Shown here: one piece after another, positions 4,066-61,000 of the stretch | Numbering within the stretch: position 1 is the stretch's first letter | Layout: each line of letters opens with the position of its first letter | Origin: a virus | Direction: 5' to 3' (one strand) | Virus record (IMG/VR): IMGVR_UViG_3300045988_107203 | Location: 15,075 to 79,074 of that record | DNA: 64,000 bases | Notes under the pieces: model-generated | The model's input: only the letters and a program-made list of their open reading frames with translations | The model's database searches: none | What the model was told of the DNA's origin: nothing | Made by a program: the position numbers and the translations under genes

Positions 4066-4871
4066 TATTAAAAACGACAACCAACGAGTTTTGTTTCATT
4101 AACGTAAGTTTCTACGAAACAATAGCAGATCCTCGTCATTTCTTTGAACAGGATTATGAAGAGATGCCAGAATATGAGGAGGAATCGGATTTTGATTTTG
4201 ATTCTTATTACAATAAGTTTATTCCTTTTGTACAGGAATGGGCGAATGAGGTGGGCGAACGCCTTTACGGATATGGCGTGAATAGTATAAAGGTAACATC
4301 GGTCGGATATCCGAAAGAATATAATTATGGTACTGATTGGATGAACGTAGAGGTAGAGTTTTGTGATGAATGGAGGCAAAAGATGTTATCTAACATTAGT
4401 AAGATTGTCAATGATGATAAATGCAAGAAGTATGCGGAGACTAATTACCGGTCGGTATCAGGATACATCTTTTTAGGGCCTGAAGATTTAAAGGAATTTG
4501 AAAAGGAAATAATAGAAAGAAAGTCGGATTCCGGATATGATGTAACAATATTATTAAATATGTATCTAACTTTGGCTTTTGTAAAAGAATTTGGATTTAA
4601 AGCCGGAGAAGCATGGAGTGAAATAACAGAATATGCTTACGGATGTTTATCGTATTCCGATTTTGCAACAACAGAGATGCTTATACCGGAAGGTTCGGAG
4701 CATTTATTCAAAGACATTTACACGGCAAAGGCCGACGAATTATATCATCATGTCCTGGATAAATTCGGATGGGCGTGGCGTGATCCGAAATATAAGTCAG
4801 AAACAGAATTATGCGCAATGCTAAAGTGGGCAAAAGAAAAAGGCTTGACCATTGAAGAGTTAAGTATTTAA
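4062..4871 (+). CDS. hypothetical acidic protein (269 aa)
   Basis: long ORF, start coupled to previous stop. Confidence 0.7.
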   Translation: MILKTTTNEFCFINVSFYETIADPRHFFEQDYEEMPEYEEESDFDFDSYYNKFIPFVQEWANEVGERLYGYGVNSIKVTSVGYPKEYNYGTDWMNVEVEFCDEWRQKMLSNISKIVNDDKCKKYAETNYRSVSGYIFLGPEDLKEFEKEIIERKSDSGYDVTILLNMYLTLAFVKEFGFKAGEAWSEITEYAYGCLSYSDFATTEMLIPEGSEHLFKDIYTAKADELYHHVLDKFGWAWRDPKYKSETELCAMLKWAKEKGLTIEELSI

Positions 4872-4931
4872 TTGTTAAACATAAGGCAGTAGTGGTGCGT
4901 GAGTATAGGTGCTGCCGTTAAAATATTTTAT

Positions 4932-5183
4932 AAGATGAAAAAAGAAGAGATTCAAACTATTTTATACACAATCAAAGAAGGAGACAGTATTAAGATCAAA
5001 GTACAAGACAAAAGTGAAGAGATAAGACTGCGGGATCATGTAAGAAGAGTACAGAAATACGGATACAGGTTTTGTTTGTCTCATTTGCATGATGGAATTT
5101 TCTATCTGGAGAAGTTAGAAGAAGGGGATAAGGATAAATACTATAGAGTAATAAACAGAGGAAATGGAAAGACCAGAGTATAA
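4932..5183 (+). CDS. hypothetical protein (~83 aa; track ORF 4899 starts at GTG)
   Basis: first ATG in frame at 4932; hairpin 4875-4907 precedes. Confidence 0.45.
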   Translation, partial: KMKKEEIQTILYTIKEGDSIKIKVQDKSEEIRLRDHVRRVQKYGYRFCLSHLHDGIFYLEKLEEGDKDKYYRVINRGNGKTRV

Positions 5184-26880: not shown

Positions 26881-27413
26881 GAGGCGAAATTTGTCCTTAT
26901 TGCGGAAGAGAGACTGAGCTGGTAAATGCCGATAAAATATATAGCAGAAAAGGCTTAGGGATGGTTATGATGTGTAAACCATGCAACGCTTATGTCGGTG
27001 TTCATGAATCAGGGCCGAATAAGGGAAAAGCTAAAGGCCGGCTTGCGGGGCCATCACTGAGATCTCTTAAGATAAGAGTCCATGCCGAACTTGACAGACT
27101 ATGGTCTACGCCGGAGGAACGGGAAAGGATGTATAAAGATTTATCTGAATTTCTCTCTATACCGGAAGAATACACACATATAGGTATGTTTGGCGAGAAG
27201 ACGATGGGAAAAGTATTTCAATTCTGTCATGTAAACAAAGAGCGATCAGGTTCGAGAATAGAATGGCATAAACCTGGAGATAAGTGCCCTAATAAAAACA
27301 ATCAAATAGTGTCAGGAAGTAGCGCATGTAGAGGATGTCCTGAGTATCTCCATGATGAGAAAGACGGGTATGTCTGGTGTGATCCTGATATGAGTTACGG
27401 CAGGTTGAAATAG
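26847..27413 (+). CDS. DUF3268-like zinc-ribbon protein (188 aa)
   Basis: CPYCG...LVNADKIY...MMCKPCNAYVGVH N-terminal pattern; extra C-terminal Cys cluster. Confidence 0.45.
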   Translation: MELNERQQRVLRGEICPYCGRETELVNADKIYSRKGLGMVMMCKPCNAYVGVHESGPNKGKAKGRLAGPSLRSLKIRVHAELDRLWSTPEERERMYKDLSEFLSIPEEYTHIGMFGEKTMGKVFQFCHVNKERSGSRIEWHKPGDKCPNKNNQIVSGSSACRGCPEYLHDEKDGYVWCDPDMSYGRLK

Positions 27414-27465
27414 GGCGAGAATTGCCTATCTTTGTGCTATTATCAATCAAAAAAAATGTAAGAAG

Positions 27466-27744
27466 ATGGGCAGATCAACAGAGTACTACAGGACTCATCC
27501 CGAAGCCAGGAAGAAAAAGGCTAAAAAAGACAAGGAGATAAATGCCAGACCGGAACAGAAAGCCAAACGCCGGGAGCTTGGTCGTAAAAACTACGAAACG
27601 GACAAGAAGAAGGGCAAGGGCTGGAGGAAAGGCAAGGATTGTTCTCATACCAAGAACGGTCTTAAGTATAAATCAGTAAAAGCTAATAGGGGATCCAAGT
27701 CGGATACGAAAGGTGACAAAAATGCAAGAGGAGATAGCAAATAG
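27466..27744 (+). CDS. highly basic Lys-rich protein (92 aa), possible nucleic-acid binding
   Basis: ~35% K/R. Confidence 0.5.
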   Translation: MGRSTEYYRTHPEARKKKAKKDKEINARPEQKAKRRELGRKNYETDKKKGKGWRKGKDCSHTKNGLKYKSVKANRGSKSDTKGDKNARGDSK

Positions 27745-28846
27745 GATAGATATAAGAAGGATATTCAAGACCTCTAAACAAGTTATGGAAGAGGCGTATG
27801 AGAATATCTTGAAATACAGGCGGGGAGAGCTTATCCCCGCTAAAACCGGATACGATTATATTGATGAGGCTTTGCTTGGAGGTATTTTCCCTCAGCATGC
27901 TATTGCCATAGGAGCCCGGCCATCTGTAGGTAAATCGTATGTGGCCCAAAAGATATTGGAAAATGTGATGAATCCGATGATCAACCCGCAAGCAGAAGAT
28001 TATTTTCTTGTTAATTGCGAGTTCGAAATGAATCCTCAAGATCTTCTTCTTCGTAGAATGAGCCAGGATATGAAAAAGAGGGCTCCTGAAATATTAAGAA
28101 GGCAAGATTCTAATACGGTAGAAGAGATGAGGATGTTTGAAATCCTTCAAGGTGAAATCAGAAATAACATAATATACATCGATGCTCCGTGTACGGTAAA
28201 AGAGTTTGAGGCGGCTGTGTATCATATAGCTACCAAACACAAAGATAAACGTCTTATAATATTTAAAGTCGATCATATTGCTTTGATAAAAAGAATGGGG
28301 TTAGATTCTAAGTCGGCTATAGATGATTTGGTGGCGGTTATGAACGAAGCTAAATTAGTATATAAAAACATATTTTTCCTCATCATATCCCAATTCAACA
28401 GAGAGATAGAAGGAAGGATAAAAAGCCCACAAGAGCAGCCTCCGCGTCTTTCTGATTTTTACCAGTCTGATACGCTGGGTCAGTTATGTACGTTAATGAT
28501 AGGTTTGCACAATCCTCGTAGGTACGGGCTGGATAAGTATATGATATTTGGGAAAGATTGGTATCAGACTCTTGATAGGTTTAAAACTGAAAACAAAACA
28601 TCATTCAGGACAGCCGGACTGGTGTTTCATCATATACTGAAGGTAAGGCAAGTTAGTATGGAAGAGCTTACTAATACAATCCACCCGGAGATCCTGCCAG
28701 GGCATGGATGGATGTACGGGGAGGGCGGGACGAAGTTCGTGAACCCCAACCAGCCGCCGACTCCGCCCAAGCTCTATACCGTGGAAGACGTTACAGACAA
28801 TCAGGAACAAGAACAAGAGACAAAGGAAGAACAGTCATTGTATTAA
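27713..28846 (+). CDS. DnaB-like replicative helicase (C-terminal RecA-fold domain), 377 aa
   Basis: Walker A GARPSVGKS; Walker B-like IIFKVDHIALI; SQFNRE motif. Confidence 0.65.
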   Translation: MTKMQEEIANRIDIRRIFKTSKQVMEEAYENILKYRRGELIPAKTGYDYIDEALLGGIFPQHAIAIGARPSVGKSYVAQKILENVMNPMINPQAEDYFLVNCEFEMNPQDLLLRRMSQDMKKRAPEILRRQDSNTVEEMRMFEILQGEIRNNIIYIDAPCTVKEFEAAVYHIATKHKDKRLIIFKVDHIALIKRMGLDSKSAIDDLVAVMNEAKLVYKNIFFLIISQFNREIEGRIKSPQEQPPRLSDFYQSDTLGQLCTLMIGLHNPRRYGLDKYMIFGKDWYQTLDRFKTENKTSFRTAGLVFHHILKVRQVSMEELTNTIHPEILPGHGWMYGEGGTKFVNPNQPPTPPKLYTVEDVTDNQEQEQETKEEQSLY

Positions 28847-28861
28847 AAAAAAATAAGAACC

Positions 28862-29464
28862 ATGAGACTAACAGTAGAAGAAAACGAATACCTGATAAGT
28901 AAGTTCCTTTTGGTTCTTACTGAGTTTGCAGGGGATAAAAGAGAGATGTTTTTAATCAACTCCATACATGATAAGGCGGTGGCGGATATGAATTATCGTC
29001 TTCCGTCTTTAATAAGCAGAGAACGTAAAAGACGAGTTATTGAGCTCCTTAAAGAAGGAACCAGAATAATCAAGGACTTTTCTGGTTATGCAGGTGATAT
29101 GGGTATGATTAACGAATACGATCGTCTAAAGAAAGAAATAGGAACCGTCCAAGACCAGCTTGGTGACGTAGAAGGTCAACTTCGGGCAGCAGGAGAAGTT
29201 ATTAAAAAAGAACTTGATATGATTGCTGACCGAATAAAAGAAGATCTTCTTGACCGGGAGCTGGCTAAGAGTAATGCCGAAGCTGAAAGAAAAGCCAAAG
29301 TAGATCCGAGATATGAAGTAGCTTTAGGTGATTATAAGGAGATGCTGGAAGTGATTTTTACAACCAGAAACAAGTATTCTACGGTAGATTCTGTACATGA
29401 TGATCTTCGTCAGTCGGTATCTACTGGTAGAAATTCGATTATTAAAGAAGGGTACAACAGTTAA
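28862..29464 (+). CDS. hypothetical coiled-coil protein (200 aa)
   Basis: tiled ORF. Confidence 0.55.
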   Translation: MRLTVEENEYLISKFLLVLTEFAGDKREMFLINSIHDKAVADMNYRLPSLISRERKRRVIELLKEGTRIIKDFSGYAGDMGMINEYDRLKKEIGTVQDQLGDVEGQLRAAGEVIKKELDMIADRIKEDLLDRELAKSNAEAERKAKVDPRYEVALGDYKEMLEVIFTTRNKYSTVDSVHDDLRQSVSTGRNSIIKEGYNS

Positions 29465-29479
29465 AAACAAGGAGGGAAT

Positions 29480-29686
29480 ATGGAAAAGAAGGAATTTAAA
29501 GTAGGAGAAGTGTTTGATGCCGGACTTGTAAGATTAAAATGCGTGGAAGCTACGGCACCGGATTCAGGATGTGAAGGATGTATATTTAATTACTTTACAT
29601 GCGGGGCAGTGGATGTGATTGCAGGTCCGTGTAATCACGCAGAGAGAGAGGATAATAGGGATGTTATTTTTATTAAAGCTGATTAG
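29480..29686 (+). CDS. small Cys-containing protein (68 aa)
   Basis: SD AAGGAGGG upstream. Confidence 0.5.
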   Translation: MEKKEFKVGEVFDAGLVRLKCVEATAPDSGCEGCIFNYFTCGAVDVIAGPCNHAEREDNRDVIFIKAD

Positions 29687-29688
29687 GC

Positions 29689-30402
29689 ATGTACATCAAT
29701 TTCAGACAACTTGCAGCATCAGACATGACGCCTAATGACCTTGCCAATCTTCTTGCCATAAGACAGAAGGACACGGTTATGATCGAAGCCATGCCAGAAG
29801 AAGATGCTGGGAGATATATAGAGCTTGGCTTGGTTGAGAAATTAAAATCAGGCGTGATGAGATTAACCAACAAAGGAACGTCTTTTGTGAATTATATAGA
29901 GACACCGGAAATGACAGACGAGGTTCTGGAAACGTTGAAGATTATGATAGGGATGTACGAATCATATTCAAAAGACATAGGTGTCAGCAGAAAAGAAGCG
30001 GAATCCAGATTGTGTTGGTTTATGGGTAATACTTCATTTAAGAAAGAGGTCATACTTCAGGTAACAGAATCTTATATAGCAGAGTCAGGAGATTACACAA
30101 TGAGCTTATGTAACTTCATATGGAAACCGCCTTCTCAGGCTTTTTCAGTCCATATGAACCTTAAAAATTCAAAGCTCTTTGACTTAATAGCTGAAAAATT
30201 TAAGATCGCTACCGAGCCTTATTTGGAGTCTAAGAAGAATAAGGAAATGGATTGGTTGTTTGCCGTATCTAAATTGCCTACGCCGCCGGCTAAAGGCAAT
30301 CCGGATTATTTGTTTACCGGAAGTTCTGAAACAGACAAAGAGAGATTGAAAAACATAAAAACATACTTATTTAACAAAATTAGAAAGCAATGGAAAAAGT
30401 AG
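29689..30402 (+). CDS. hypothetical protein (237 aa), first gene of ACP-NfeD-flotillin operon
   Basis: stop overlaps ACP start. Confidence 0.6.
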   Translation: MYINFRQLAASDMTPNDLANLLAIRQKDTVMIEAMPEEDAGRYIELGLVEKLKSGVMRLTNKGTSFVNYIETPEMTDEVLETLKIMIGMYESYSKDIGVSRKEAESRLCWFMGNTSFKKEVILQVTESYIAESGDYTMSLCNFIWKPPSQAFSVHMNLKNSKLFDLIAEKFKIATEPYLESKKNKEMDWLFAVSKLPTPPAKGNPDYLFTGSSETDKERLKNIKTYLFNKIRKQWKK

Positions 30403-30641
30403 AAATCAGAAAGATTATAGAGGATATAATTATTACTCAGTTTCTTAATTCGGAAATGGATATAGTTCATGAAGAAGATGTGACGTTTAAAGAACTTGGA
30501 TTAGATTCTCTTGATCAAATTGAACTGGAAATGATGGTGGAACAAAAATTCAATATTGTTATTATTGATTATGATATGGAGACCATCAAAGATATGACTG
30601 ATCTTGTTTACAAAATAATAACAGAAGGATATGGGAAGTGA
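30390..30641 (+). CDS. acyl carrier protein-like (83 aa)
   Basis: LGLDSLDQIELEMMVEQKFNIVI matches ACP phosphopantetheine-attachment motif (DSL); length typical. Confidence 0.7.
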   Translation: MEKVEIRKIIEDIIITQFLNSEMDIVHEEDVTFKELGLDSLDQIELEMMVEQKFNIVIIDYDMETIKDMTDLVYKIITEGYGK

Positions 30642-31125
30642 CATAATTTTATGCATGGCTTTAATAGCGTCATTTGCTTTTGTTATACAGTTTTTGTTGT
30701 CGATATTAGGATCTGATCTGGATACGGATATTGACATTGACAGTGCTTCTGATTTAAGCATGTCTTTGTCGGACATCATATCATTCAAGGGCATAACACA
30801 TTTTATTCTTGGATATAGCTGGACCACATACTTTTCGGGTTCCCATTTAGTAGGGGTTGTGATAGGGTCGTTTTTCTTTATCGTTTTGTTTTACGTATAT
30901 AAGTTACTTCTTAAGTTAAAGCAAGAAATGGTGTACGAATGTCCGGAAGATTTAAATGGCAGAGAAGTGGAGATAGTGTTTAGATCAGGGAAGAATCATT
31001 ATATGGTAAATATTTCGAAAAATGGAAGACAAGAGCAAATGAGAGTAAGATGCTTGTCTGGGAAAACCTACAAAAACGGCGACAAGGCGAATATAAAATA
31101 TGAAGAAGGAGAATTAAGTATCTAA
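30631..31125 (+). CDS. NfeD/YuaF-like membrane protein (N-terminal TM helices + C-terminal OB-fold), 164 aa
   Basis: 3 hydrophobic helices then soluble beta-rich tail; immediately upstream of flotillin as in yuaF-floT operons. Confidence 0.6.
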   Translation: MGSDIILCMALIASFAFVIQFLLSILGSDLDTDIDIDSASDLSMSLSDIISFKGITHFILGYSWTTYFSGSHLVGVVIGSFFFIVLFYVYKLLLKLKQEMVYECPEDLNGREVEIVFRSGKNHYMVNISKNGRQEQMRVRCLSGKTYKNGDKANIKYEEGELSI

Positions 31126-31157
31126 TTCTTTTTATCAACAATTAAATTTTAAAAGTT

Positions 31158-32858
31158 ATGACAACAATCATGTACGTGTCAGCTATCTTAGCTGTAGTGA
31201 TTATTTTGACAATCATCGGAGTCTTATCAAGGTATCGTAGATGTAAGCCTAATCAGGTCTTGGTCGTTTATGGTAAGACAGGTGGGGAAAAGAAATCGGC
31301 GAAATTATATCATGGTGGAGCGGCATTTGTCTTGCCTATTATTCAAAGCTATGATGTTTTGTCAATGGAGCCTATGCAAATAGATTGCAAGCTTACCGGT
31401 GCTTTGTCATCTCAGAATATTAGAGTAGATGTACCTACGACTATTACAGTAGCTATCAGTACAAATCCAGAAATCATGCAAAATGCGGCAGAAAGACTTT
31501 TGGGGATGGATACCGAATCTACTGAAAATCTTATTACGGACATCGTTTACGGTCAGATGCGTTTGATTATTGCTGAAATGACAATCGAAAAACTTAATTC
31601 TGACAGGGATGAGTTTTTGGATAAGGCAAGAAAGAACATTGATAACGAACTTAACAAGTTAGGTCTTTACCTCCTGAACATCAACATCAGTGACATCAGA
31701 GACGAAGCCGGTTATATTATGAACCTTGGTAAGGAAGCTGAAAGTAGGGCTCTGAACGAGGCACAGGCTAATATTGAAGAACAGGAGAAGCTGGGTGCTA
31801 TTAAGATTGCTGTACAGCAGAAGGAGAAAGAAACAGCTGTGGCTAATACCAAAAAAGAACAAGAGATTCAAATTGCTTGTACTGAAAAAGAAAAGGAAAC
31901 GATAGTAGCTGAAACGAAGAAAGAAAAAGAAATAGCCTTGGCTTTAACCGATAAAGAGAAACAGATCGGCGTAGCTCAAGCAGATAGAGACAGGGCTGCG
32001 GTTATCGCAAAAACTTTAACCGACAAGGAATCGGCGATTGTAAGATCTAAGGCAGAACTTGAAGTAAATAAAGCCGAGGCTGAAAGGATGGAAGAAGTCG
32101 GAAAAAATAAGGCTGAAGCTGACAAGGAAGCAGCTATAGCAATACAAGACTCTGAAGCTCAGATTAAGAAGGCTGAGGCTGAGAAAAATGCGTCTATAGG
32201 ATACAACAATGCCCAGAAGGAGGTTGCTGTATCGGTATCAGAATTACAGATCATCAAAGCTCAATCAGAGAAGAAGGCCGGAGAAGAAAAAGTTAAATCG
32301 GAAGCGGCTGTAAAAACGGCAAAAGAACTTGCTGATAAAGAAGTGGAAGAAGCTAAGGCTAAGAAAGTTCAGGCTGCGCTTAAGGCTGAAAAGATTGTGC
32401 CGGCTGAAACCCAGAAGGAAGAGGCTATCTTGCAAGCTGATGCTGAGGCAGAGAAGATCAAACGCCGGGCTGAGGCAGAGGCAGCAGCACATTTGGCAAA
32501 AGCTGAGGCAGAGGCAAAAGCTATTCAGATGAAGCTGGAGGCAGAAGCCGAAGGTAAGAAAAAGTCGTTAATGGCAGAAGCCGACGGATTTAAGGCTATG
32601 GTGGAAGCGGCAGAATCCAATCCTCAGATAGCCATCCAGTACAAGATGGTTAATCAGTGGAAAGAAATTGCTGGAGAACAGGTTAAGGCATTTGAGCACA
32701 TTAACCTCGGAAATATCACGGTATTTGACGGCGGTCAGAACAGTACCGGTAATTTCCTTAACAATGTTGTTAAGACCGTCGCTCCGGCATTGGGAGTCAT
32801 TGATCAGCTTCCGATTGCAGATACTTTAAAGAAGCTAAAAGGAGATGACAAAAAATAA
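31158..32858 (+). CDS. flotillin (FloT/YuaG-like SPFH/band-7 protein), 566 aa
   Basis: N-terminal TM helix; SPFH motifs GGAAFVLPIIQS and ISDIRDEAGYIMNLGK match B. subtilis FloT GGGTFVLPVFQQ / IKDVRDKNGYLESLGK; long EA-rich coiled coil; C-terminal ITVFDGG. Confidence 0.85.
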   Translation: MTTIMYVSAILAVVIILTIIGVLSRYRRCKPNQVLVVYGKTGGEKKSAKLYHGGAAFVLPIIQSYDVLSMEPMQIDCKLTGALSSQNIRVDVPTTITVAISTNPEIMQNAAERLLGMDTESTENLITDIVYGQMRLIIAEMTIEKLNSDRDEFLDKARKNIDNELNKLGLYLLNINISDIRDEAGYIMNLGKEAESRALNEAQANIEEQEKLGAIKIAVQQKEKETAVANTKKEQEIQIACTEKEKETIVAETKKEKEIALALTDKEKQIGVAQADRDRAAVIAKTLTDKESAIVRSKAELEVNKAEAERMEEVGKNKAEADKEAAIAIQDSEAQIKKAEAEKNASIGYNNAQKEVAVSVSELQIIKAQSEKKAGEEKVKSEAAVKTAKELADKEVEEAKAKKVQAALKAEKIVPAETQKEEAILQADAEAEKIKRRAEAEAAAHLAKAEAEAKAIQMKLEAEAEGKKKSLMAEADGFKAMVEAAESNPQIAIQYKMVNQWKEIAGEQVKAFEHINLGNITVFDGGQNSTGNFLNNVVKTVAPALGVIDQLPIADTLKKLKGDDKK

Positions 32859-32865
32859 ATACAAT

Positions 32866-32887
32866 GGCCCAAGGTTACACTTGGGCC
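32866..32887 (+). terminator. hairpin GGCCCAAG-GTTACAC-TTGGGCC after flotillin
   Basis: 7-bp perfect stem 8 nt after stop; U tract weak. Confidence 0.4.
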
Positions 32888-32918
32888 TAATTGAAGAAAT
32901 AAAAGCAGCATTCATAGA

Positions 32919-32934
32919 TTTCCTGCCGGCAGGA
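32919..32934. promoter_or_regulatory. perfect 16-bp palindrome TTCCTGCCGGCAGGAA
   Basis: exact dyad symmetry in 520-bp intergenic region; candidate operator. Confidence 0.35.
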
Positions 32935-33275
32935 ACAGTGCTTTACTAATTACGATATTTTTAACATGGATTTTGGACAAGATTTAGAACCAGAAGAACT
33001 GACCAATCATTATGATCAGTGTTATAACCCCAAATAGTATTAAACCAATATAATTCTATTATAAAAGTTTAATACATCTCTTTAAGAGATCGGGTTATTA
33101 GCCTAAGCCTTGAAACAAAGGCTACGTTATTTAAGAATAGATAGTTACCTACGGATGTTTGCCCAAGTCTGTAGCTCTAAGGTAAGTGATTAAACAGTTC
33201 TGGTATTCAGGAACAGTGTTGCTTATTCAAAACCTCAAATAACATTGGCGATGGGTACTTACAGGAGAAATCCTG

Positions 33276-33337
33276 ACTTATCCCTAACGGGATTTACATC
33301 TACCAAGGAGACCGAAAGGTCTCCGAGGGGATGTATT
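33276..33337 (+). other. structured element: TCCC-TAAC-GGGA, ACATC...GATGT enclosing GGAGACC-GAAA-GGTCTCC GNRA hairpin
   Basis: nested perfect stems; possible terminator or small RNA. Confidence 0.4.
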
Positions 33338-33381
33338 AAAACATACGAATAGCTTTAAATATATTTAATAGAATATGGGAT

Positions 33382-33729
33382 ATGGAATTGATTTTGAAAC
33401 AGAAGAAGAGGAGGATGAAGAGTATGACTGACGAGGAATTTGTATTGGATAATAAGAAAAAGGTTGTTGTAAGAAAAAGAATATCTTATTTAAACAAAGG
33501 TGATAAAGTATGGATCGTGTCTTCCGACGGGTATCTGCTACACACGGACGTAGTTAGAGCCGAACGGGGCCGATCTTATGTGGATATAGACGGGATACTG
33601 TATTGGAAACGAGGATTGGATGGTAAACATCGTAATCGTAATAACTACATGCAGTTTGCCATGACACCAGAAGACGGTAAGAAGTATGTCGTATATTACC
33701 CGGAAGGATTTAAAGACGATAGCTTATGA
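33382..33729 (+). CDS. hypothetical protein (115 aa)
   Basis: tiled ORF. Confidence 0.55.
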   Translation: MELILKQKKRRMKSMTDEEFVLDNKKKVVVRKRISYLNKGDKVWIVSSDGYLLHTDVVRAERGRSYVDIDGILYWKRGLDGKHRNRNNYMQFAMTPEDGKKYVVYYPEGFKDDSL

Positions 33730-34745
33730 TGGTCCCAGAAACGCATTTGCTATATAAGGAGTTTAATGGCGTGAAACGTCTTGCCATATCTTATTCCCAG
33801 ATAGATACGTTTCTTACTTGTCCAATGAAATGGTATAAGACTTACGTAGAGGGTAAAAGGTCTACAGAAAAACAAGAAGCTACGTCTTATGGTACGGTTA
33901 TCCATAAGACACTGGAATACTTCTTCAAAAACGGAAGACAGCCTTCTGGTAAAGACCTTGGAGAAGCAATAAGTTACTATGCTTACCAAGAAGACATACC
34001 TTGGCAATCACCGGAAAATATGATGATAGCCATGAAACAATCTGGGGAGCTTCTTGCTTGGATTGTGGATCTGTTTAAAAAAGACGGGAATGGGTTTATG
34101 ATAGCTGATAGTGATCTTAATCCCTGTGAGAAACTTATCAGGCACGGCGCCATAGTTGGAGTCGAAGAAGATTTTGTGCTGCCGTACCGTCTTCCTAAGC
34201 CTGTTGATATAAATGGAGTAATTCATACTCATGTGTACATAGTAGGATCGGTAGACCTTCATCTGGCTATAAAGAGCAAGAACGTAGTTCACCATTATGT
34301 CATAGATTGGAAATCAGGGAATAAGGTTTTTGATTCTAAGAAACTGGAGACAAATTTACAACATCCTATATATTCGTTTTACATCTATAGAAAATATGGT
34401 GGGGTTCTACCAGATATGAACATCTATTTCTTTACCAGGACCAGGCAGTACCAAAAGGTTAAAGTAGATGAAGATCGTAAAACAAAATCTATAGAGATGC
34501 TAAATAACACTTTATCCAAAATGTATGATTTTGAAGATAATAGTGTAAAAACATTTCAGGCATACATCCAGGGAGTAGAAGGAGCCAGGTATAGCAAGCG
34601 GCGTGCCACTCTAAGCCAGCCTGTTCCGCAAAACAAGCTACCCTGCCCGTCGGCACTGTGTTATTATTGTGACTTTGGATTACATAACAAAAACGAATGC
34701 CCTTTCTCTTCGGATTGGGATCCGTCTAAAAAGATAAAGCGATGA
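33726..34745 (+). CDS. Cas4-like / RecB-family PD-(D/E)XK exonuclease with Cys cluster (339 aa)
   Basis: N-terminal TCPMKWY Cys; motif II GSVDLHL; motif III YVIDWKSGNK; C-terminal CPSALCYYC...ECPF (Fe-S-type triad). Confidence 0.65.
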   Translation: MMVPETHLLYKEFNGVKRLAISYSQIDTFLTCPMKWYKTYVEGKRSTEKQEATSYGTVIHKTLEYFFKNGRQPSGKDLGEAISYYAYQEDIPWQSPENMMIAMKQSGELLAWIVDLFKKDGNGFMIADSDLNPCEKLIRHGAIVGVEEDFVLPYRLPKPVDINGVIHTHVYIVGSVDLHLAIKSKNVVHHYVIDWKSGNKVFDSKKLETNLQHPIYSFYIYRKYGGVLPDMNIYFFTRTRQYQKVKVDEDRKTKSIEMLNNTLSKMYDFEDNSVKTFQAYIQGVEGARYSKRRATLSQPVPQNKLPCPSALCYYCDFGLHNKNECPFSSDWDPSKKIKR

Positions 34746-34915
34746 AATACGAGGACGTTCAAAAGTTAAGAACAAAATACCGGCAAGATCCGGAAGTTAT
34801 AAACGTAGAATACATGAGAGACGTTGCTGTAAGATCCGGGAATTTTAAGAAAGCATTTGAGCTTCAGGAAAGACTGGAGAATATATGGTTTAACTACTTA
34901 AAGGGAGTCCAATGA
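34742..34915 (+). CDS. small protein (57 aa) MKYEDVQKLRTKYRQDPEVINVEYMRDVAVRSGNFKKAFELQERLENIWFNYLKGVQ
   Basis: ATGA overlap at both ends (34742-34745, 34912-34915); below track threshold. Confidence 0.5.
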   Translation: MKYEDVQKLRTKYRQDPEVINVEYMRDVAVRSGNFKKAFELQERLENIWFNYLKGVQ

Positions 34916-35235
34916 AAGAAGATCTAATATGTGGAGTAGCGATCCTTTTGTATTTAGTTTTATTATACTTGCTCACGACAACTTTCATAAAAACATGTAG
35001 AGCAGTAGATCGTTATAAGATGAAGAAGAAAACTGACAAAATCAAAGTAGGTCAAAGATACGAACATAAGAACTACTTTGAGGATCCATTTGAAAGAGGC
35101 AAGCATGTGATTAAGATATTAGACATAAAAGAAGGGTACGCTCTATATGAGTACGAAGAAAAACTATATATACGTTCTTCTGTGAGTCTTGAAGATATTG
35201 TTAAAAAATATATTTTAATTACTGATATAGAATAA
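34912..35235 (+). CDS. small membrane-anchored protein (107 aa)
   Basis: N-terminal TM helix. Confidence 0.5.
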   Translation: MKEDLICGVAILLYLVLLYLLTTTFIKTCRAVDRYKMKKKTDKIKVGQRYEHKNYFEDPFERGKHVIKILDIKEGYALYEYEEKLYIRSSVSLEDIVKKYILITDIE

Positions 35236-35241
35236 GGGGTT

Positions 35242-35628
35242 ATGGAAAAGAAAGTCACAATCAAAGAAGGGATGGGTATTTTTTACAAAAATGCAGGAAA
35301 AGGTATATGGGTCTATATTGGACTTTTTGGAAATAAAGTGCTATCCATTTTAAAAAACAAAGGTGTTATTGCATGCGAAAACGATGCTGAATATTGCGTG
35401 TTGATGGATGGAGAAGATCATTTTATAAGTATAGCAAAAGACATGAGTCACGACTATTGTTGTGAGTACGTTGTAGAAAGAGCAGAAGCCTACAGAGACT
35501 ACCCATCCAAAGGTGCTACATGCAGTGTATGCCTGTTTGAAGATAATGAGAATAAAGCAAGGGAGATGTTGAAAGAGGCGATAATAGAACTTTCAAAAAA
35601 TAATATAATAGATTGTGATGGGCTTTGA
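35242..35628 (+). CDS. hypothetical Cys-rich protein (128 aa)
   Basis: tiled ORF. Confidence 0.5.
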   Translation: MEKKVTIKEGMGIFYKNAGKGIWVYIGLFGNKVLSILKNKGVIACENDAEYCVLMDGEDHFISIAKDMSHDYCCEYVVERAEAYRDYPSKGATCSVCLFEDNENKAREMLKEAIIELSKNNIIDCDGL

Positions 35629-37039
35629 ACTTAGACCTTACCAGAAAGAGGCAGTAGATGCCGGGCTTAAGTTTCTTACAGGAAGATCTGAGAAGCCTGG
35701 CATAATCGTAGCTCCATGCGGATGTGGAAAGAGCCTTCTGATATCCAAGATAGCACATGAAATAAATAGACCGACATTAGTATTACAGCCCTCAAAAGAG
35801 ATTCTGGAGCAGAATTATGCAAAAGCCGTATCATTCGGTTCTAAACCTACTATATATTCTGCTTCATGTGGTATAAAGGAGCTGTCGGCTATGACTTATG
35901 CAACATTAAAGAGCATAAAGAAAGATGTAGCGAGGTTGAAGGATATAGGGATAGATACCTTATTGATAGACGAATGTCATTCAGGATATTCTCCTGAGGA
36001 AGGTTCTGAATTTATGGAGTTTATGAGCGAGTTTCCAGAGGCGAAGGTGCTGGGCTTCACCGCCACCCCCTGCCGCCTCCGAACCTACAGTTCCATGCTG
36101 GAAGGAAACTATAGCAAGCTCAATATGCTGACGAAAGACGAGCATAATTTCTTCAAGAAAATAGTTCATGTGACTCAAATACAAGAACTAACCTCTCAAG
36201 GGTTTTGGTGTCCACTTAAGTACGAACGATGGTCGTTTGATGAATCGGCTCTGATGTTAAACAGTACCGGAGCTGAATACACCAACGAATCTATTAAAGA
36301 AAGTATTGTAAGAAATGGCTTAAACAACTCTATCTACAAGCGCCTTCTTCAACTTATGAACGAACGTAAAGCCATTTTGGTTTGCATGGATTCTATCGAA
36401 TCATGTAATAGAATATCAGAGTTTATGAATGCCAAGATGGGAGCCATAACCGGTGTCGTAACATCGCTAACAACCAAAAAGAAAAGAGAACAAATTATAT
36501 CAGATTTCAAAGAAGGTAAGTTGAAGGTGGTTTTTAATTATTCAACGCTTGCTACCGGATTTGATTTTCCTGAACTTGATTGTGTGATGTTTGGTCGACC
36601 GACTTTCTCATATTCAACGTATTACCAAATATTAGGCCGCGCCGTCCGCATCCATCCTGACAAGAAAGAGGCACTGATAGTTGATTGCTGCGACAACATG
36701 AGGCGTTTCGGTCGGATAGAAGACTTGACAATCGAGCAATTCCCTTCTAAGGGCTGGTGTATGTTTGCCGGAGATCAACTTCTGTCCAATATAAGGATGG
36801 GTGATATTATTACCAAAGACGAGATCCTTCGCCGGGCAGCCTCGCTTAAATCTGTGAACGGAGATGGTAGGAGAGAAGACGATCTTGACAGTATAATAAT
36901 GTGGTTTGGAAAATATGAAGGAATTAGATTCAAGGACATACCAGTGTCGTATTTTAGGTTTTTGGCTGAGAATATGGCGGTAAAACCGGGAGATAGGAAA
37001 GAAAAGATTGTAGAATATTATAATAGGATAAAAGCATGA
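35615..37039 (+). CDS. SF2 DEAD/DEAH-box helicase with C-terminal DUF3820-like domain (474 aa)
   Basis: Q motif YQKEAV; Walker A APCGCGKS; DECH; TAT (GFTATPCR); motif VI QILGRAVR; C-terminal FGKYEGIRFKDIPVSYFRFL. Confidence 0.8.
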   Translation: MMGFELRPYQKEAVDAGLKFLTGRSEKPGIIVAPCGCGKSLLISKIAHEINRPTLVLQPSKEILEQNYAKAVSFGSKPTIYSASCGIKELSAMTYATLKSIKKDVARLKDIGIDTLLIDECHSGYSPEEGSEFMEFMSEFPEAKVLGFTATPCRLRTYSSMLEGNYSKLNMLTKDEHNFFKKIVHVTQIQELTSQGFWCPLKYERWSFDESALMLNSTGAEYTNESIKESIVRNGLNNSIYKRLLQLMNERKAILVCMDSIESCNRISEFMNAKMGAITGVVTSLTTKKKREQIISDFKEGKLKVVFNYSTLATGFDFPELDCVMFGRPTFSYSTYYQILGRAVRIHPDKKEALIVDCCDNMRRFGRIEDLTIEQFPSKGWCMFAGDQLLSNIRMGDIITKDEILRRAASLKSVNGDGRREDDLDSIIMWFGKYEGIRFKDIPVSYFRFLAENMAVKPGDRKEKIVEYYNRIKA

Positions 37040-58047: not shown

Positions 58048-61000
58048 TCCTTATTTAACTCATTTATCGAATCCGAATTATCAGAACCTTCTACGAGATT
58101 CTTATTCCTATCTATCTCTTCCTGGCTCATATTACTTATCATATTTTGTATTTTTCTACCAGATTGAGATAAAGAGCGGATGAATGCACTGGAACTTATC
58201 TTAACTCCAAGATCCGGTTTTGCCCTAAACGCTTCACCGGTACTGATATTATACAAATCATACACACCTGAGTTCATATAGAATTTATATATCCAGTTTC
58301 CACCAGCTTTTTTGTACCCTAATTTGGTTAACTCGACTACACTCATACCAAATTTAATGCCATTACGACCCATTATCTTCTCCGGTATAGGTTCTACCTT
58401 AGCCGGAACAGATGTATATGCTTCATCGCCGCCGTACAGGAAATAAGGGGTTGTCACCCTTGATATGTGAGTAAGCGACTCTTCGGATATACGAGGTTCG
58501 TCTTTTTCTATTTCTCCTTTTGTAGATCCAGGTAATTCGACATTTCTTTCAACTTCGACATTTGTTCTGGATTGTCCTTTGCCTTCTCCATCTCCCTTTT
58601 TATCGCCATCTTCCTCAGTGCGTACTGCACCGCCTTCTGCACTTCCTTCTTTTCCATCATTTAAAATATTATCTGATTCTGACTCTATAGACTCCACGAC
58701 AGCATCATACTCTGGTATGCCGCTAAGGAAATCTGCTACGTTATTCAAAAACTCTATTTTTTCCTCGTTTGTCATATCAAGGCTTTCCACTGGCTCCCAT
58801 ATGGCAGGCAAGTTGTTTGATTTTATTGCAGTAGAAACATCTTCTATAGTTTGGTTATCCACCGTAGGCAAAACTTTAGAAACCAAACTATTGATATCAG
58901 ATTCCATTTTTTCTACTTCCTCTTTTGTGCCATATTCTTTTAGGGTATCCATGCCATTGACTCTAAGAGAATAATTCAAAGCCTTGCTCGGAACAAAATT
59001 AATATATTTCAAAAAGTTTTTCAACTCTGATATAATTTGTTCGTCAGATCTTGGCCCAACATAATCAACCACCACCTGATCTGTTTGAGAACGAAGCCAA
59101 GAAACGTATTCTTCTAAAGTCTTACCACCTTTACTGGAAGGAGTGGATATTTTATCACCTACTGTTCCTTTAGGTTCTAATCCCATTTCCTCCTTAAGGC
59201 TTTTAGGATTACCTCTCTCACGAAGAAACCTCAAATCACCTCCTACAATCTTCCTTGCTATAAAATCAAAAATATTAGCATAAGACGGCAATCCTTCTTT
59301 TTCTATATGAGATTCTATTTCGTTTAACATAAGAGAGAAGTTTTTCCTGGAGGTACGCTTCTTGCCAGGTAAAGACTGCGTAGCTTGTGCCGCAGGAGCT
59401 GGTTGAGCCGGTGGCGCCGGCTGAGTCCCCCGGACAGCTCCTTCCTCTGGCATTTCCTCTTCATAAACATCCACATCTTCTTTAGAAGTAACGGTCTTAC
59501 CCTCATCAGAGAAAGGAAGATCATCCTCTATAAGTGATTTAGGCCTGGAAGATGATTTACCAAACTGGATCCTGATCTTAGGAGCAACAAACATCTCACC
59601 TTCGAAATCTATTCCAGATTCTACTTCAGACGTCACAATGTCTTTCACGCTCCTACTTCCATCTTCTACCCACTTAACAACATCAGGAACCGTAGATAAT
59701 TTCTCTATAGCCTCACGAGCTTTTCTAAGCCCTGAAATAGGATTCAAATACGATACTTGATACGAAGCCGGATCAAGGTCTAACTTGGTTAGATACGCAT
59801 TAAGATCTTGTATATCATCTTGACCCATCTGTAGCAATTCAGAATCACCAGATTCAAGCAGCATATCTATAAAAGACATCCATTTCTGCCCTTCCTCTGA
59901 TTCTACAGAACGTAGGCTAACTGGGAAAAGATAATTAAGACCGTTTTTACCTTTGATGACAACTACCGGAACTCTTACATTTTTGTAATTATTCCCCTTG
60001 TCATTTAATATAGAATAAGCAAATGGGAAGCCTGTGTATTTAGATCCGTTCTTAAGCACGACTTTGCCATTTAATACATATCCGACATCAGATACTTTTT
60101 CAGCACCTTTTTCGGTAATAGGGAGATTTTCTACCTGGCCATATCCTTGACCGTTCACCTTCATGTTAAACACCGGTCTTCCGGGAAGGGTCTGGGCAAC
60201 AACATGCGTGCCGACGCCGATGGTAGCCGACCGGCCGGCGTCCTTCTTCCACTTGTTGAAAGCCGTTCTTCTTATCTTACTTATACCATCTATGCCTCCT
60301 GTATCAGCTTTTACAACAGAAACGAATCTGTTCCCACTCATAACCTTAATAACCATATTGGATACCAGCTTATTTTCAGCAGATTCTATTTTATTTCTAT
60401 CGCCGGACTGAACAGCGTTATTGTATTCGGTAAAAAGAGACTGATTATAGGTATCATTTACATCTATTTCGAGATTCACCTTATCTCCTTTTTTCAAAGA
60501 AGATAATGCTTCCTGATCTATTTTATCTACTTCATTCTCTCCGAATCCGACACCTGTTCTGTACGGAACCAACTCATCTGAATCAAGACGCTTATAAACC
60601 AAAGAATATGAATTACCCACGTCCTGAATAGACACGTCTGTGTAGCGATTAAGAACACGAGCCGATTCTTTATCTATAGACCATCTCGCATGATAAGGTA
60701 ATTCCATTATAGTAGCCGTTTCTCCACCTATGTTAAGAGAATACCTTTTAGTACCATTAGCGTTCGTTTCAGAGCTTATTTGAATAGGAACCAATGATTT
60801 TATAGAAGATATAAATTTATCGGCTCTAAGACCCGCAATTTCATACCTTTCGTTGCCATCGTTGGATATTCTTCTAACCATCAACGTCTCTGGATTCTGG
60901 GCACTATCTATGTTAGCTCCCGGCGTATTATCGGATTCGTCTAACTCATTTACAAGAGAATCTATATTAGCATCATCCTCCCCAAAATTACTTAACGTAG

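Follow-up and report, generated by a model that had tools for sequence, protein, structure and literature searches.

Operons that pair a flotillin gene with an NfeD gene are near-universal in bacteria, and their physiological role is still debated. The yuaF-floT genes of B. subtilis, yqiJ-yqiK of E. coli and nfeD-floA of S. aureus make up the SPFH2/NfeD2 class of such operons. Epsilon crAss-like phages are, in turn, widespread in human gut metagenomes. Flotillins of the SPFH2 type are encoded in operons with weakly conserved NfeD homologues and have been transferred laterally together with them (PMC2636767). The OB-like domain of NfeD binds the flotillin coiled coil and stabilizes its oligomers, which act as ATP-independent holdases for unfolded membrane proteins (PMC11222466). 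SPFH proteins with no known role are also encoded by tailed phages, examples being the flotillin family protein of Vibrio phage KIT04 and phrog_200, an SPFH “lipoprotein” found in GIB1 and other T4-like phages (PMC13239085).

The window analyzed here, a 64,000-nt stretch of viral DNA, comes from an abundant human-gut crAss-like phage that belongs to a sub-lineage of epsilon crAss-like phages, and carries an NfeD-like gene followed by a flotillin gene. The explanation that best accounts for these genes (30631-32858) as a whole is that they are a two-gene operon captured from Bacteroidales that provides an accessory membrane-scaffold function; we put its probability at about 0.75. A search for other phage-encoded SPFH proteins returned only 11 phage records out of 50,697 that matched at all. 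The KIT04 protein (473 aa) is 29% identical to the flotillin studied here over half of the length, and its upstream gene codes for an 82-aa hydrophobic protein in which two hydrophobic stretches can be recognized by eye and the OB domain is absent. The match to phrog_200 is weak (E 7e-5). Neither of the two has a recognizable recent host-derived NfeD and flotillin pair.

Two genes homologous to a Bacteroidales operon

Four ORFs follow each other on the + strand: 29689-30402 (ORF1, 237 aa), 30390-30641 (an acyl carrier protein (ACP)-like gene, 83 aa), 30631-31125 (NfeD-like, 164 aa) and 31158-32858 (flotillin, 566 aa). A previous reading of the locus, made from the sequence only, had placed the genes at these same positions and considered all four to be translationally coupled. 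Both overlaps on which that view relied are present, one of 13 nt between ORF1 and the ACP-like gene (30390-30402) and one of 11 nt between the ACP-like and NfeD-like genes (30631-30641). The flotillin gene, however, is preceded by a 32-nt gap with no overlap, so there are three overlapping genes, not four.

The product of the last gene was called a full-length flotillin by the sequence-only reading, and profile searches agree. The protein matches PF01145 (Band_7), the SPFH profile suggested at that time, at residues 30-211 (91.7 bits, cut-off 23.6) and PF15975 (Flot) at residues 450-559 (38 bits, cut-off 27), both scores exceeding the gathering scores. The complete SPFH2-type layout can be traced in the translation: a hydrophobic N-terminal membrane anchor (residues 5-24), the SPFH domain, a coiled coil (residues 212-449; 55% A+E+K, with 11 EA and 13 AE dipeptides) and the Flot C-terminal domain; the ITVFDGG motif noted earlier is found there as NITVFDGG. 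Human flotillin-1/2 are matched with E values of 7e-23 to 5e-19. The score against the NCBIfam FloT equivalog NF058507, on the other hand, is 144.5 bits, below the cut-off of 700. Judged by these profiles, the 566-aa protein is a member of the flotillin family but not a FloT equivalog, which, together with its being virus-encoded, sets it apart from the yuaF-floT class.

The first gene of the cassette encodes a 164-aa protein in which an acidic DxDxD loop is conserved and the C-terminal part (residues ~112-163) is predicted to form an OB-like beta barrel. The AF2 model of this protein contains helices at residues 2-25, 52-69 and 72-101 and strands at 112-163, the barrel having pLDDT values of 80-87. 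The predicted layout fits the description of NfeD in PMC2636767 and corresponds to that of NfeD2-type (YuaF/YqiJ-type) flotillin partners, i.e., about three N-terminal helices and an all-beta OB-like domain in 140-170 aa. PF01957 (NfeD), which the sequence-only reading had named as the check for 30631-31125, matched neither the phage protein nor the partner protein of B. xylanisolvens even at E ≤ 10; only 2 of the 65 family members match it, with a best E value of 6e-5. Likewise, Pfam and NCBIfam profiles run on the phage protein and its bacterial homologues produced no usable NfeD or YqiJ match. Among PDB sequences, the family profile retrieved only YuaF, with a marginal E value of 0.84, which is a further difference from the yuaF-floT class. 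Thus, from the original NfeD/YuaF-like designation, the three transmembrane helices and the OB-like barrel (as a predicted fold) and the synteny are retained, while the link to the Pfam NfeD profile is lost; drawn solely from predicted fold and synteny, the NfeD-like assignment is supported. The search has at the same time identified a family of Bacteroidales flotillin partners for which Pfam and NCBIfam have no model at present.

Flotillins encoded on the chromosomes of Bacteroides, Parabacteroides, Phocaeicola and Prevotella share 62-67% identity with the phage protein. When the pair was compared with that of B. xylanisolvens XB1A (locus L029, 4471-4968 and 4992-6641), identity was 35% for the NfeD-like protein (165 aa in the bacterium) and 64% for the flotillin. 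The NfeD-like gene lies directly upstream of the SPFH gene and is co-inherited with it in the phage and in all 29 Bacteroidales loci, at a distance of 21-145 bp in the bacteria versus 32 bp in the phage. Homology to the Bacteroidales pair, together with the same gene order and similar spacing, identifies the phage genes as a host-derived cassette; orientation and domain layout are also shared, and homology extends over the full length.

The phage genes differ from the Bacteroidales operon in three respects. First, neighbor-joining (NJ) trees of both genes group the two phage copies on a single long branch that lies outside every genus sampled; these are simple NJ trees without support values, in which the donor genus cannot be placed. 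Bacteroidales flotillins are 84-94% identical to each other in four of five pairs (74% with P. vulgatus), whereas the phage protein is ~65% identical to all of them. Second, relative to the six host homologues compared, the phage flotillin has 33 additional residues in its coiled coil. The coiled coil is also the most diverged part (55-59% identity to the host, against 75-81% in the SPFH and C-terminal oligomerization regions). Third, the 11-nt overlap with the ACP-like gene joins the genes to a phage operon. The closest complete genome carries BACON and Bacteroides-type GH5 genes, which fits a Bacteroidales host, and the host-type NfeD-flotillin cassette is an independent pointer in the same direction; the crAssE-Sib paper names no cultured host.

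Variation at the cassette slot and the proposed role of the cassette

The cassette occupies a slot between ORF1, with or without the ACP-like gene, and a PD-(D/E)XK nuclease gene. The corresponding slot of sister phages is organized as ORF1-ACP-DNA methylase-two radical SAM genes-nuclease, while other sisters have ORF1-small ORF-nuclease or ORF1-two unknown ORFs-nuclease. The cassette is also carried by a clade with 77% ORF1 identity. The ORF1 scan of IMG/VR yielded only loci that are at least 99% identical, and the divergent relatives were obtained through a search for encoding contigs.

The dN/dS ratios of the flotillin (0.031) and NfeD-like (0.046) genes are similar to that of DnaB (0.043), and when the two clades that bear the cassette are compared, no gene of the block has a lower dN than the flotillin. 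These substitution rates point to strong purifying selection on the cassette. Yet an intact flotillin gene is missing in 19 of 78 near-identical IMG/VR loci (24%; 16 clean deletions and 3 partial ones). The missing segment (31128-32960, ~1.83 kb) extends from the spacer through the entire flotillin gene to ~100 bp beyond it. In six of the seven variants aligned, the junction runs from 31127-31130 to 32957-32960, and in the seventh, L124, the left-hand alignment reached 31152; the junction microhomology is ~5 nt. In-frame length variants of the coiled coil and remnants of NfeD::flotillin fusions also occur. A single recent clonal deletion behind the flotillin-less genomes is unsupported, the allele being scattered on flank trees (NJ, poorly resolved). 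Since about a quarter of the sampled genomes have no intact copy, the cassette is dispensable, and any benefit from it is conditional at best.

Location between conserved backbone genes, alternative cargo in relatives and presence/absence polymorphism are features shared with phage morons and other auxiliary host-derived genes, and the NfeD-flotillin pair is a further case of a host-derived accessory cassette. What sets it apart is the nature of the cargo: a structural membrane scaffold and its dedicated partner in place of an enzyme, a toxin or a known defence gene.

Most probably, one epsilon crAss-like sub-lineage captured the nfeD-like/flotillin operon from a Bacteroidales bacterium, the cassette having been inserted in the variable accessory slot of the early/replication block and fused by the 11-nt overlap to the phage gene upstream. 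By analogy with the behaviour of the family in bacteria, the N-terminal helix of the phage flotillin would anchor the protein in the inner membrane of the host, oligomerization would take place through the coiled coil and C-terminal domain, and the co-inherited NfeD-like partner would stabilize the oligomer through its OB-like domain. An infected cell would then gain flotillin scaffold and holdase capacity, either additional to its own or specific to the phage, and its membrane and membrane proteins might remain functional throughout a prolonged infection, whether productive or carrier-state. The cassette would thus serve an accessory, moron-type function, strongly conserved where present but dispensable. 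We infer that the genes are co-expressed with the replication genes and that their products assemble in the membrane; the proposed benefit to the phage is purely conjectural. As a complete and strongly constrained viral copy, with flotillin-plus and flotillin-minus variants coexisting in the human gut, the cassette constitutes a natural perturbation experiment.

The longer, 55-59% identical coiled coil could also mean that function has become changed or antagonistic, rather than one of simple supplementation. A role of the cassette in conflict, i.e., superinfection exclusion, action against host defence at the membrane or dominant-negative poisoning of host flotillin cages, would agree with a coiled coil that has lengthened and diverged while the SPFH and C-terminal regions stayed close to those of the host. 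It would also agree with the presence/absence pattern, whose scatter over flank phylogenies is typical of conflict genes, and with the alternative cargo of the slot, where the DNA methylase and radical SAM genes look like counter-defence. However, PADLOC-DB defence models match none of the four proteins, a dN/dS of 0.03 is unlike that of an arms-race gene and retention of the cognate NfeD partner argues for a working complex over mere poisoning, which leaves a conflict role unlikely. We give a similarly small chance to a flotillin cage of the phage's own, distinguished by its longer coiled coil and diverged NfeD partner, that would do more than add to the host system and would reorganize the Bacteroidales inner membrane, either in support of the persistent or carrier-state lifestyle of crAss-like phages or to exclude competitors; such a cage, if real, would make this the first flotillin scaffold of a virus for which a role in infection has been demonstrated.

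The ACP-like gene and ORF1

ORF1 (29689-30402, + strand) is a conserved backbone gene of the lineage, and its product combines a MarR-like winged-helix N-terminal domain with a helical C-terminal domain; a fold search of BFVD returned a single weak match for it. The adjacent gene (30390-30641, + strand) codes for an orphan ACP-fold protein. As claimed earlier, it carries the LGLDSLDQIEL motif with the DSL serine (Ser40), and it matches PF00550 (PP-binding) with 27.7 bits at a cut-off of 20.8, and also phrog_5934. All NCBIfam ACP equivalogs scored below their cut-offs, the best reaching 37.2 bits versus 71.

The sequence-only reading had combined ORF1, the ACP, NfeD-like protein and flotillin in one four-gene unit with a lipid or acyl-transfer component. 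In such a unit, the ACP would deliver an acyl group or lipid to or through a flotillin microdomain, for example, for raft remodelling. What speaks for it is that the ACP-like gene overlaps both neighbours, that the same overlaps are found in sister clade L165 and that LGLDS40LD is conserved in all ACP alleles of the two flotillin-bearing clades. The distribution of the genes, however, speaks against it. The bacterial locus inspected has no ACP next to the flotillin pair and no recognizable host counterpart of the phage ACP. Sister phages L162, L163 and L168 have the ACP paired with ORF1 but not the NfeD-flotillin cassette, the serine being replaced with Asp in L162 and L168, and the L166 backbone has neither the ACP nor the cassette. 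Natural variants with the flotillin deleted keep the ACP. The ACP also evolves ~10 times faster (dN/dS 0.42 versus 0.03-0.05 for the cassette genes), and its identity to the sister-clade homologue is just 39%, compared with 83% for the flotillin. Finally, no PPTase, acyltransferase or lipid/fatty-acid enzyme is annotated in the 151-kb closest complete genome, many genes of which are hypothetical. A functional unit of all four genes is therefore improbable, and the attractive but unsupported link between the ACP and a membrane scaffold has to be corrected: the ACP-like and 237-aa genes belong to the backbone/accessory layer of the phage, separate from the host-derived cassette.

A DGR was considered as the cause of ACP hypervariability and rejected, as the window contains no template-repeat-like copy and there is no adenine bias at variable sites, whose count in this check is inflated by a few indel-containing alleles. 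Independently of the cassette, the conserved ORF1-ACP pair might work in the manner of FabT, the MarR-type winged-helix protein being the switch and (acyl-)ACP its co-regulator.

Genomic context of the cassette

The locus is flanked by phage replication genes encoding a DnaB-like helicase, the PD-(D/E)XK nuclease and an SF2 helicase, just as had been read from the sequence. The position of the cassette among these genes, and its co-orientation with them, could suggest that a flotillin-NfeD complex scaffolds a membrane-bound compartment for phage replication or virion assembly, and flotillins do form large membrane-attached cages (PMC13000311). But replication proceeds in the absence of the cassette in about a quarter of near-identical genomes and in whole sister clades, so the cassette is not a core part of replication or assembly, and a compartment scaffold appears highly improbable. 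A chimeric joining of host DNA to a phage contig, which the earlier reading had named as a possible source of error and which the clearly Bacteroidales-type genes could bring to mind, can be dismissed, since the arrangement recurs in an identical context in one GenBank complete genome and 59 independent IMG/VR contigs of up to ~155 kb, identity to sampled host genes is only 64% (flotillin) and 35% (NfeD-like), the NfeD-like start codon overlaps the upstream phage gene and GC content equals that of the flanks.

The GenBank record already labels the genes “acyl carrier protein”, “transmembrane protein” and “flotillin family protein”, and JGI also names the last product flotillin, so the presence of the genes is not new; the paper of that GenBank record contains no discussion of the three annotated genes. 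A scan for sigma-70 promoters, with a tool that does not cover Bacteroidales or crAss-like promoters, found 19 sites versus 18.2 expected, i.e., no enrichment.

A solo HEARO mini-element (IscB-type omega RNA; 33026-33380, + strand) is inserted in a small ORF downstream of the cassette. It is recognized by Rfam RF02033 at 33024-33262 (111 bits versus a gathering score of 83, E 7e-24), is absent from crAssE-Sib and most relatives and occupies two different sites across the population; it is a neighbour that lies outside the cassette. Closer to the flotillin gene, 8 nt past its stop codon, is a GC-rich hairpin (32866-32887, + strand) with an 8-bp stem that includes 6 GC pairs. The hairpin was scored as terminator-like on the - strand, and no T run follows it on the + strand; it may be an element of the cassette that ends or stabilizes the transcript.

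Gene layout and identity of the products

The block consists of four genes of the plus strand found by ORF translation: ORF1 (29689-30402, 237 aa), an ACP-like gene (30390-30641, 83 aa), an NfeD-like gene (30631-31125, 164 aa) and a flotillin gene (31158-32858, 566 aa). It is flanked by a DnaB-like helicase gene (27713-28846) and, on the other side, by a PD-(D/E)XK nuclease gene (33726-34745) followed by an SF2 helicase, which confirms the phage context proposed for these genes. The base composition is uniform throughout the block. The sequence-only reading had described one unit of four coupled genes; its coordinates match exactly and genes 1-3 do overlap, by 13 nt (ORF1/ACP) and 11 nt (ACP/NfeD-like), but the flotillin gene is set apart from the NfeD-like gene by an AT-rich 32-nt spacer. 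Positions 27000-37000 of the window are 96.9% identical to GenBank OR575929.1, “phage csAssE-Sib” (crAssE-Sib), a 151-kb human-gut phage in which the four genes are annotated, in order, as hypothetical protein, acyl carrier protein, transmembrane protein and flotillin family protein. The crAssE-Sib genome paper, which deals with epsilon crAss-like phages of the genus Epsilonunovirus, makes no mention of flotillin, acyl carrier or transmembrane proteins (PMC11054128).

By its sequence, the 566-aa protein is a flotillin, as had been claimed. It matched the Band_7 (91.7 bits) and Flot C-terminal (38 bits) domains above their gathering scores, as well as human flotillin-1/2 chains (E 7e-23 to 5e-19); its N-terminus is hydrophobic, and a 238-residue segment is 55% A+E+K. 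By the NCBI criterion it does not qualify as a FloT equivalog, scoring 144 bits where the cut-off is 700. Protein databases contain length variants, through in-frame coiled-coil deletions, among close relatives of the phage flotillin (~408-659 aa; alignment A4, P0097-P0120), as well as NfeD::flotillin fusion remnants. If the length variants work, the height of the flotillin cage would differ. Two members of the set, P0110 and P0120, are bacterial-type sequences, one with an internal duplication resembling an assembly artefact.

The 164-aa protein had no Pfam or NCBIfam match, and NfeD (PF01957) was absent even at E<=10. Its AlphaFold model contains three helices followed by a small beta barrel (pLDDT 71 overall, 80-87 in the C-terminal part); in fold comparisons, generic OB folds such as ribosomal protein uS17 gave similar scores. 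An exhaustive profile search (E<=0.001) retrieved 404 representatives of its family, mostly 160-180 aa long; two of the 65 members sampled touched PF01957 and none matched an NCBIfam model. The family resembles the flotillin-associated NfeD2 group (YuaF/YqiJ), where sequence similarity is very weak and architecture and operon position are conserved (PMC2636767). The putative NfeD partner is NfeD-like in predicted fold, architecture and operon position, though not by profile.

Bacterial counterparts and distribution of the NfeD-flotillin cassette

When one genome of each bacterial species was scanned, the phage flotillin aligned along its whole length, at 62-67% identity, with chromosomal flotillins of Bacteroides, Parabacteroides, Phocaeicola, Prevotella and relatives (64% with that of B. 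xylanisolvens XB1A). Directly upstream of the B. xylanisolvens flotillin lies a 165-aa gene whose product is 35% identical (E 2e-29), end to end, to the phage 164-aa protein and shares its acidic DxDxD loop; the other neighbour of this 165-aa gene is a 249-aa ORF in divergent orientation, and no ACP was present at this one bacterial locus inspected. This partner gene was located 21-145 bp upstream of flotillin in all 29 Bacteroidales loci parsed. Across families, Bacteroidales flotillins share 84-94% identity (74% for P. vulgatus), and the phage protein is ~65% identical to all of them: 79-81% in the SPFH domain, 75-81% in the C-terminal region and 55-59% in the coiled coil, which is 33 residues longer than the Bacteroidales counterpart. 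In neighbour-joining trees of both genes, the two phage clades formed one group on a single long branch, which lies outside the genera sampled. The simplest reading of these comparisons is a single capture of an intact two-gene operon from a Bacteroidales-type donor, followed by divergence.

The Bacteroidales partner family (~165 aa; alignment A5; 4471-4968 of the B. xylanisolvens XB1A locus L029) has invariant G61 and G79, the acidic DxDxD loop and near-invariant S51, K53, G54, H57, F58, Y90, G110 and G150; no Pfam or NCBIfam model covers it.

IMG/VR contained 151 contigs with a Bacteroides-type flotillin and 195 with ORF1 relatives. Among the best 80 of the 151, 79 were at 65-67% identity, with all those cross-checked belonging to this phage lineage, and one, probably host DNA, was at 94%. 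The flotillin of one 25-kb “viral” contig (L171, IMGVR_UViG_3300045988_141550) is 94% identical to its B. xylanisolvens counterpart; this contig is in the viral catalogue probably as host DNA or the flank of a prophage, not as a second case of capture by a virus. Any flotillin match was found in just 11 of 50,697 deposited phage records. Besides crAssE-Sib, the sole cultured, annotated example is Vibrio phage KIT04, whose flotillin is only 29% identical and lacks an OB-domain partner. The cassette, labelled in public annotation and not discussed in the literature searched, is not categorically new; it is uncommon, and a good experimental subject, since natural plus and minus variants exist.

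A variable slot and the fate of its genes

We compared the segment from ORF1 to the nuclease in relatives with progressively more divergent ORF1. Locus L165 (ORF1 77% identical to that of the window) carries ACP, the NfeD-like gene and flotillin with identical overlaps; L166 (63%), only a homologue of window ORF 33382-33729; L162, L163 and L168 (58-60%), ACP, a DNA methylase and two radical-SAM genes; L167 (57%), two unknown ORFs. In L164 (37%), a 65-aa ORF and a DPBB protein are followed directly by the helicase, the nuclease being missing. The segment is a variable slot, and its contents indicate that ORF1 is backbone, ACP an accessory of some clades and NfeD-flotillin a clade-specific insert. 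Both the cassette, an accessory operon derived from the host, and its slot belong to kinds already known, from bacteria and from phage genomes respectively. In L162, L163 and L168 (6941-9946), the methylase, two small ORFs and two radical-SAM proteins come directly after the ACP homologue; this set is a candidate cassette for DNA modification or counter-defence.

Within the near-identical IMG/VR population, dN/dS relative to the window was 0.012 for ORF1, 0.031 for flotillin, 0.043 for DnaB, 0.046 for the NfeD-like gene, 0.055 for the nuclease and 0.42 for ACP. Between the two cassette-bearing clades, dN was lowest in the block for flotillin (0.12) and highest for ACP (0.56). Loss of the cassette is nevertheless frequent: both genes are intact in 59 of 78 assessable loci, 16 retain the NfeD-like gene and lack flotillin, and three have other partial deletions. 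Six of the seven flotillin-less junctions mapped (out of 16) have an identical ~1.83-kb deletion from window ~31128 to ~32960 with ~5 nt of microhomology (in L124 the left alignment ends at 31152). On trees of both flanks, which are weakly resolved, the flotillin-less allele required 10-11 state changes over 16 taxa (shuffle mean 14.7), which suggests a recombining presence/absence polymorphism and not one recent clone.

The claim of an ACP fold holds for the 83-aa protein (PP-binding 27.7 bits against 20.8, DSL serine present), which falls under every NCBIfam ACP cut-off. The proposed functional coupling of ACP to the flotillin scaffold is not borne out: ACP is absent beside the operon at the one bacterial locus inspected and occurs without the cassette in L162, L163 and L168, methylase/radical-SAM phages that have Asp (GFDDLD) in place of the phosphopantetheine serine; flotillin-deleted genomes retain it; it evolves ~10 times faster than the cassette genes; and no phosphopantetheinyl transferase, acyltransferase or fatty-acid enzyme is annotated in crAssE-Sib. 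The ACP/NfeD-like stop-start overlap shows that the insert is tightly integrated in the phage transcription unit; it does not imply shared function. No other gene of the block evolves nearly as fast as ACP, which shows 82-100% identity where ORF1 is 99-100% identical and 39-41% amino acid identity to the sister clade. Its changes concentrate in two places, the helix that follows the DSL serine and the “IIDYDMETIK / VNDDNIKSIK” segment (loci L082-L168). A DGR was rejected as the source of this variability: the window has no copy of a template, and the variable sites show no bias towards adenine.

Possible role and neighbouring selfish elements

In bacteria, NfeD and flotillin are the first and second genes of a near-universal operon; the OB-like domain of NfeD, bound to the flotillin coiled coil, stabilises oligomers, and the complex holds unfolded membrane proteins ATP-independently and protects stressed cells (PMC11222466). 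Flotillins are described as forming large membrane-attached cages (PMC13000311). The phage pair would be expressed together with replication genes and its products would assemble in the host inner membrane, where the added or altered scaffold would help the envelope and the membrane proteome to go on working in the infected cell. Such a scaffold plausibly bears on the reported ability of crAss-like phages to persist for long periods (PMC11054128). With its longer, more diverged coiled coil and its equally host-unlike partner, the phage complex may be insulated from, or antagonistic to, that of the host. The cassette may instead act in conflict, through exclusion or anti-defence, as the variable slot and the presence/absence polymorphism would allow; very low dN/dS is at odds with such a role, and no PADLOC match was found among the proteins. 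Many genomes lack the cassette, which rules out its being central to replication or assembly.

The phage lineage is rich in selfish elements. A 355-bp insertion on the plus strand (window 33024-33380) interrupts a small ORF (MDFGQDLEPEELTNHYDQCY|GIDFETEE...) that crAssE-Sib and most relatives have in one piece. It starts with a complete HEARO RNA (Rfam RF02033, IscB-type omega RNA; 111 bits against a gathering score of 83, E 7e-24), the sole Rfam match within the 64-kb window, and contains no IscB ORF; nor is IscB annotated in crAssE-Sib. Copies 89-100% identical are present at this site in ~17 of the related loci retrieved (19 when counted by spacing classes), and others, L095, L098, L110, L116, L150 and L155, carry them at a second site that lies ~6.8 kb upstream of ORF1; given the two sites, the insertion is a mobile solo omega-RNA mini-element. 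TnpB (OrfB_IS605/Cas12f-like) elements occupy varied places in the replication blocks of L163 (1592-2812), L166 (8044-9628) and L167 (1-687), and crAssE-Sib has two TnpB genes (58986-60125 and 64190-65413); one element of this set carries a Y1 transposase. The SF2 helicase of L163 and L167 is interrupted by intein/homing-endonuclease signatures (Hom_end_hint, LAGLIDADG).
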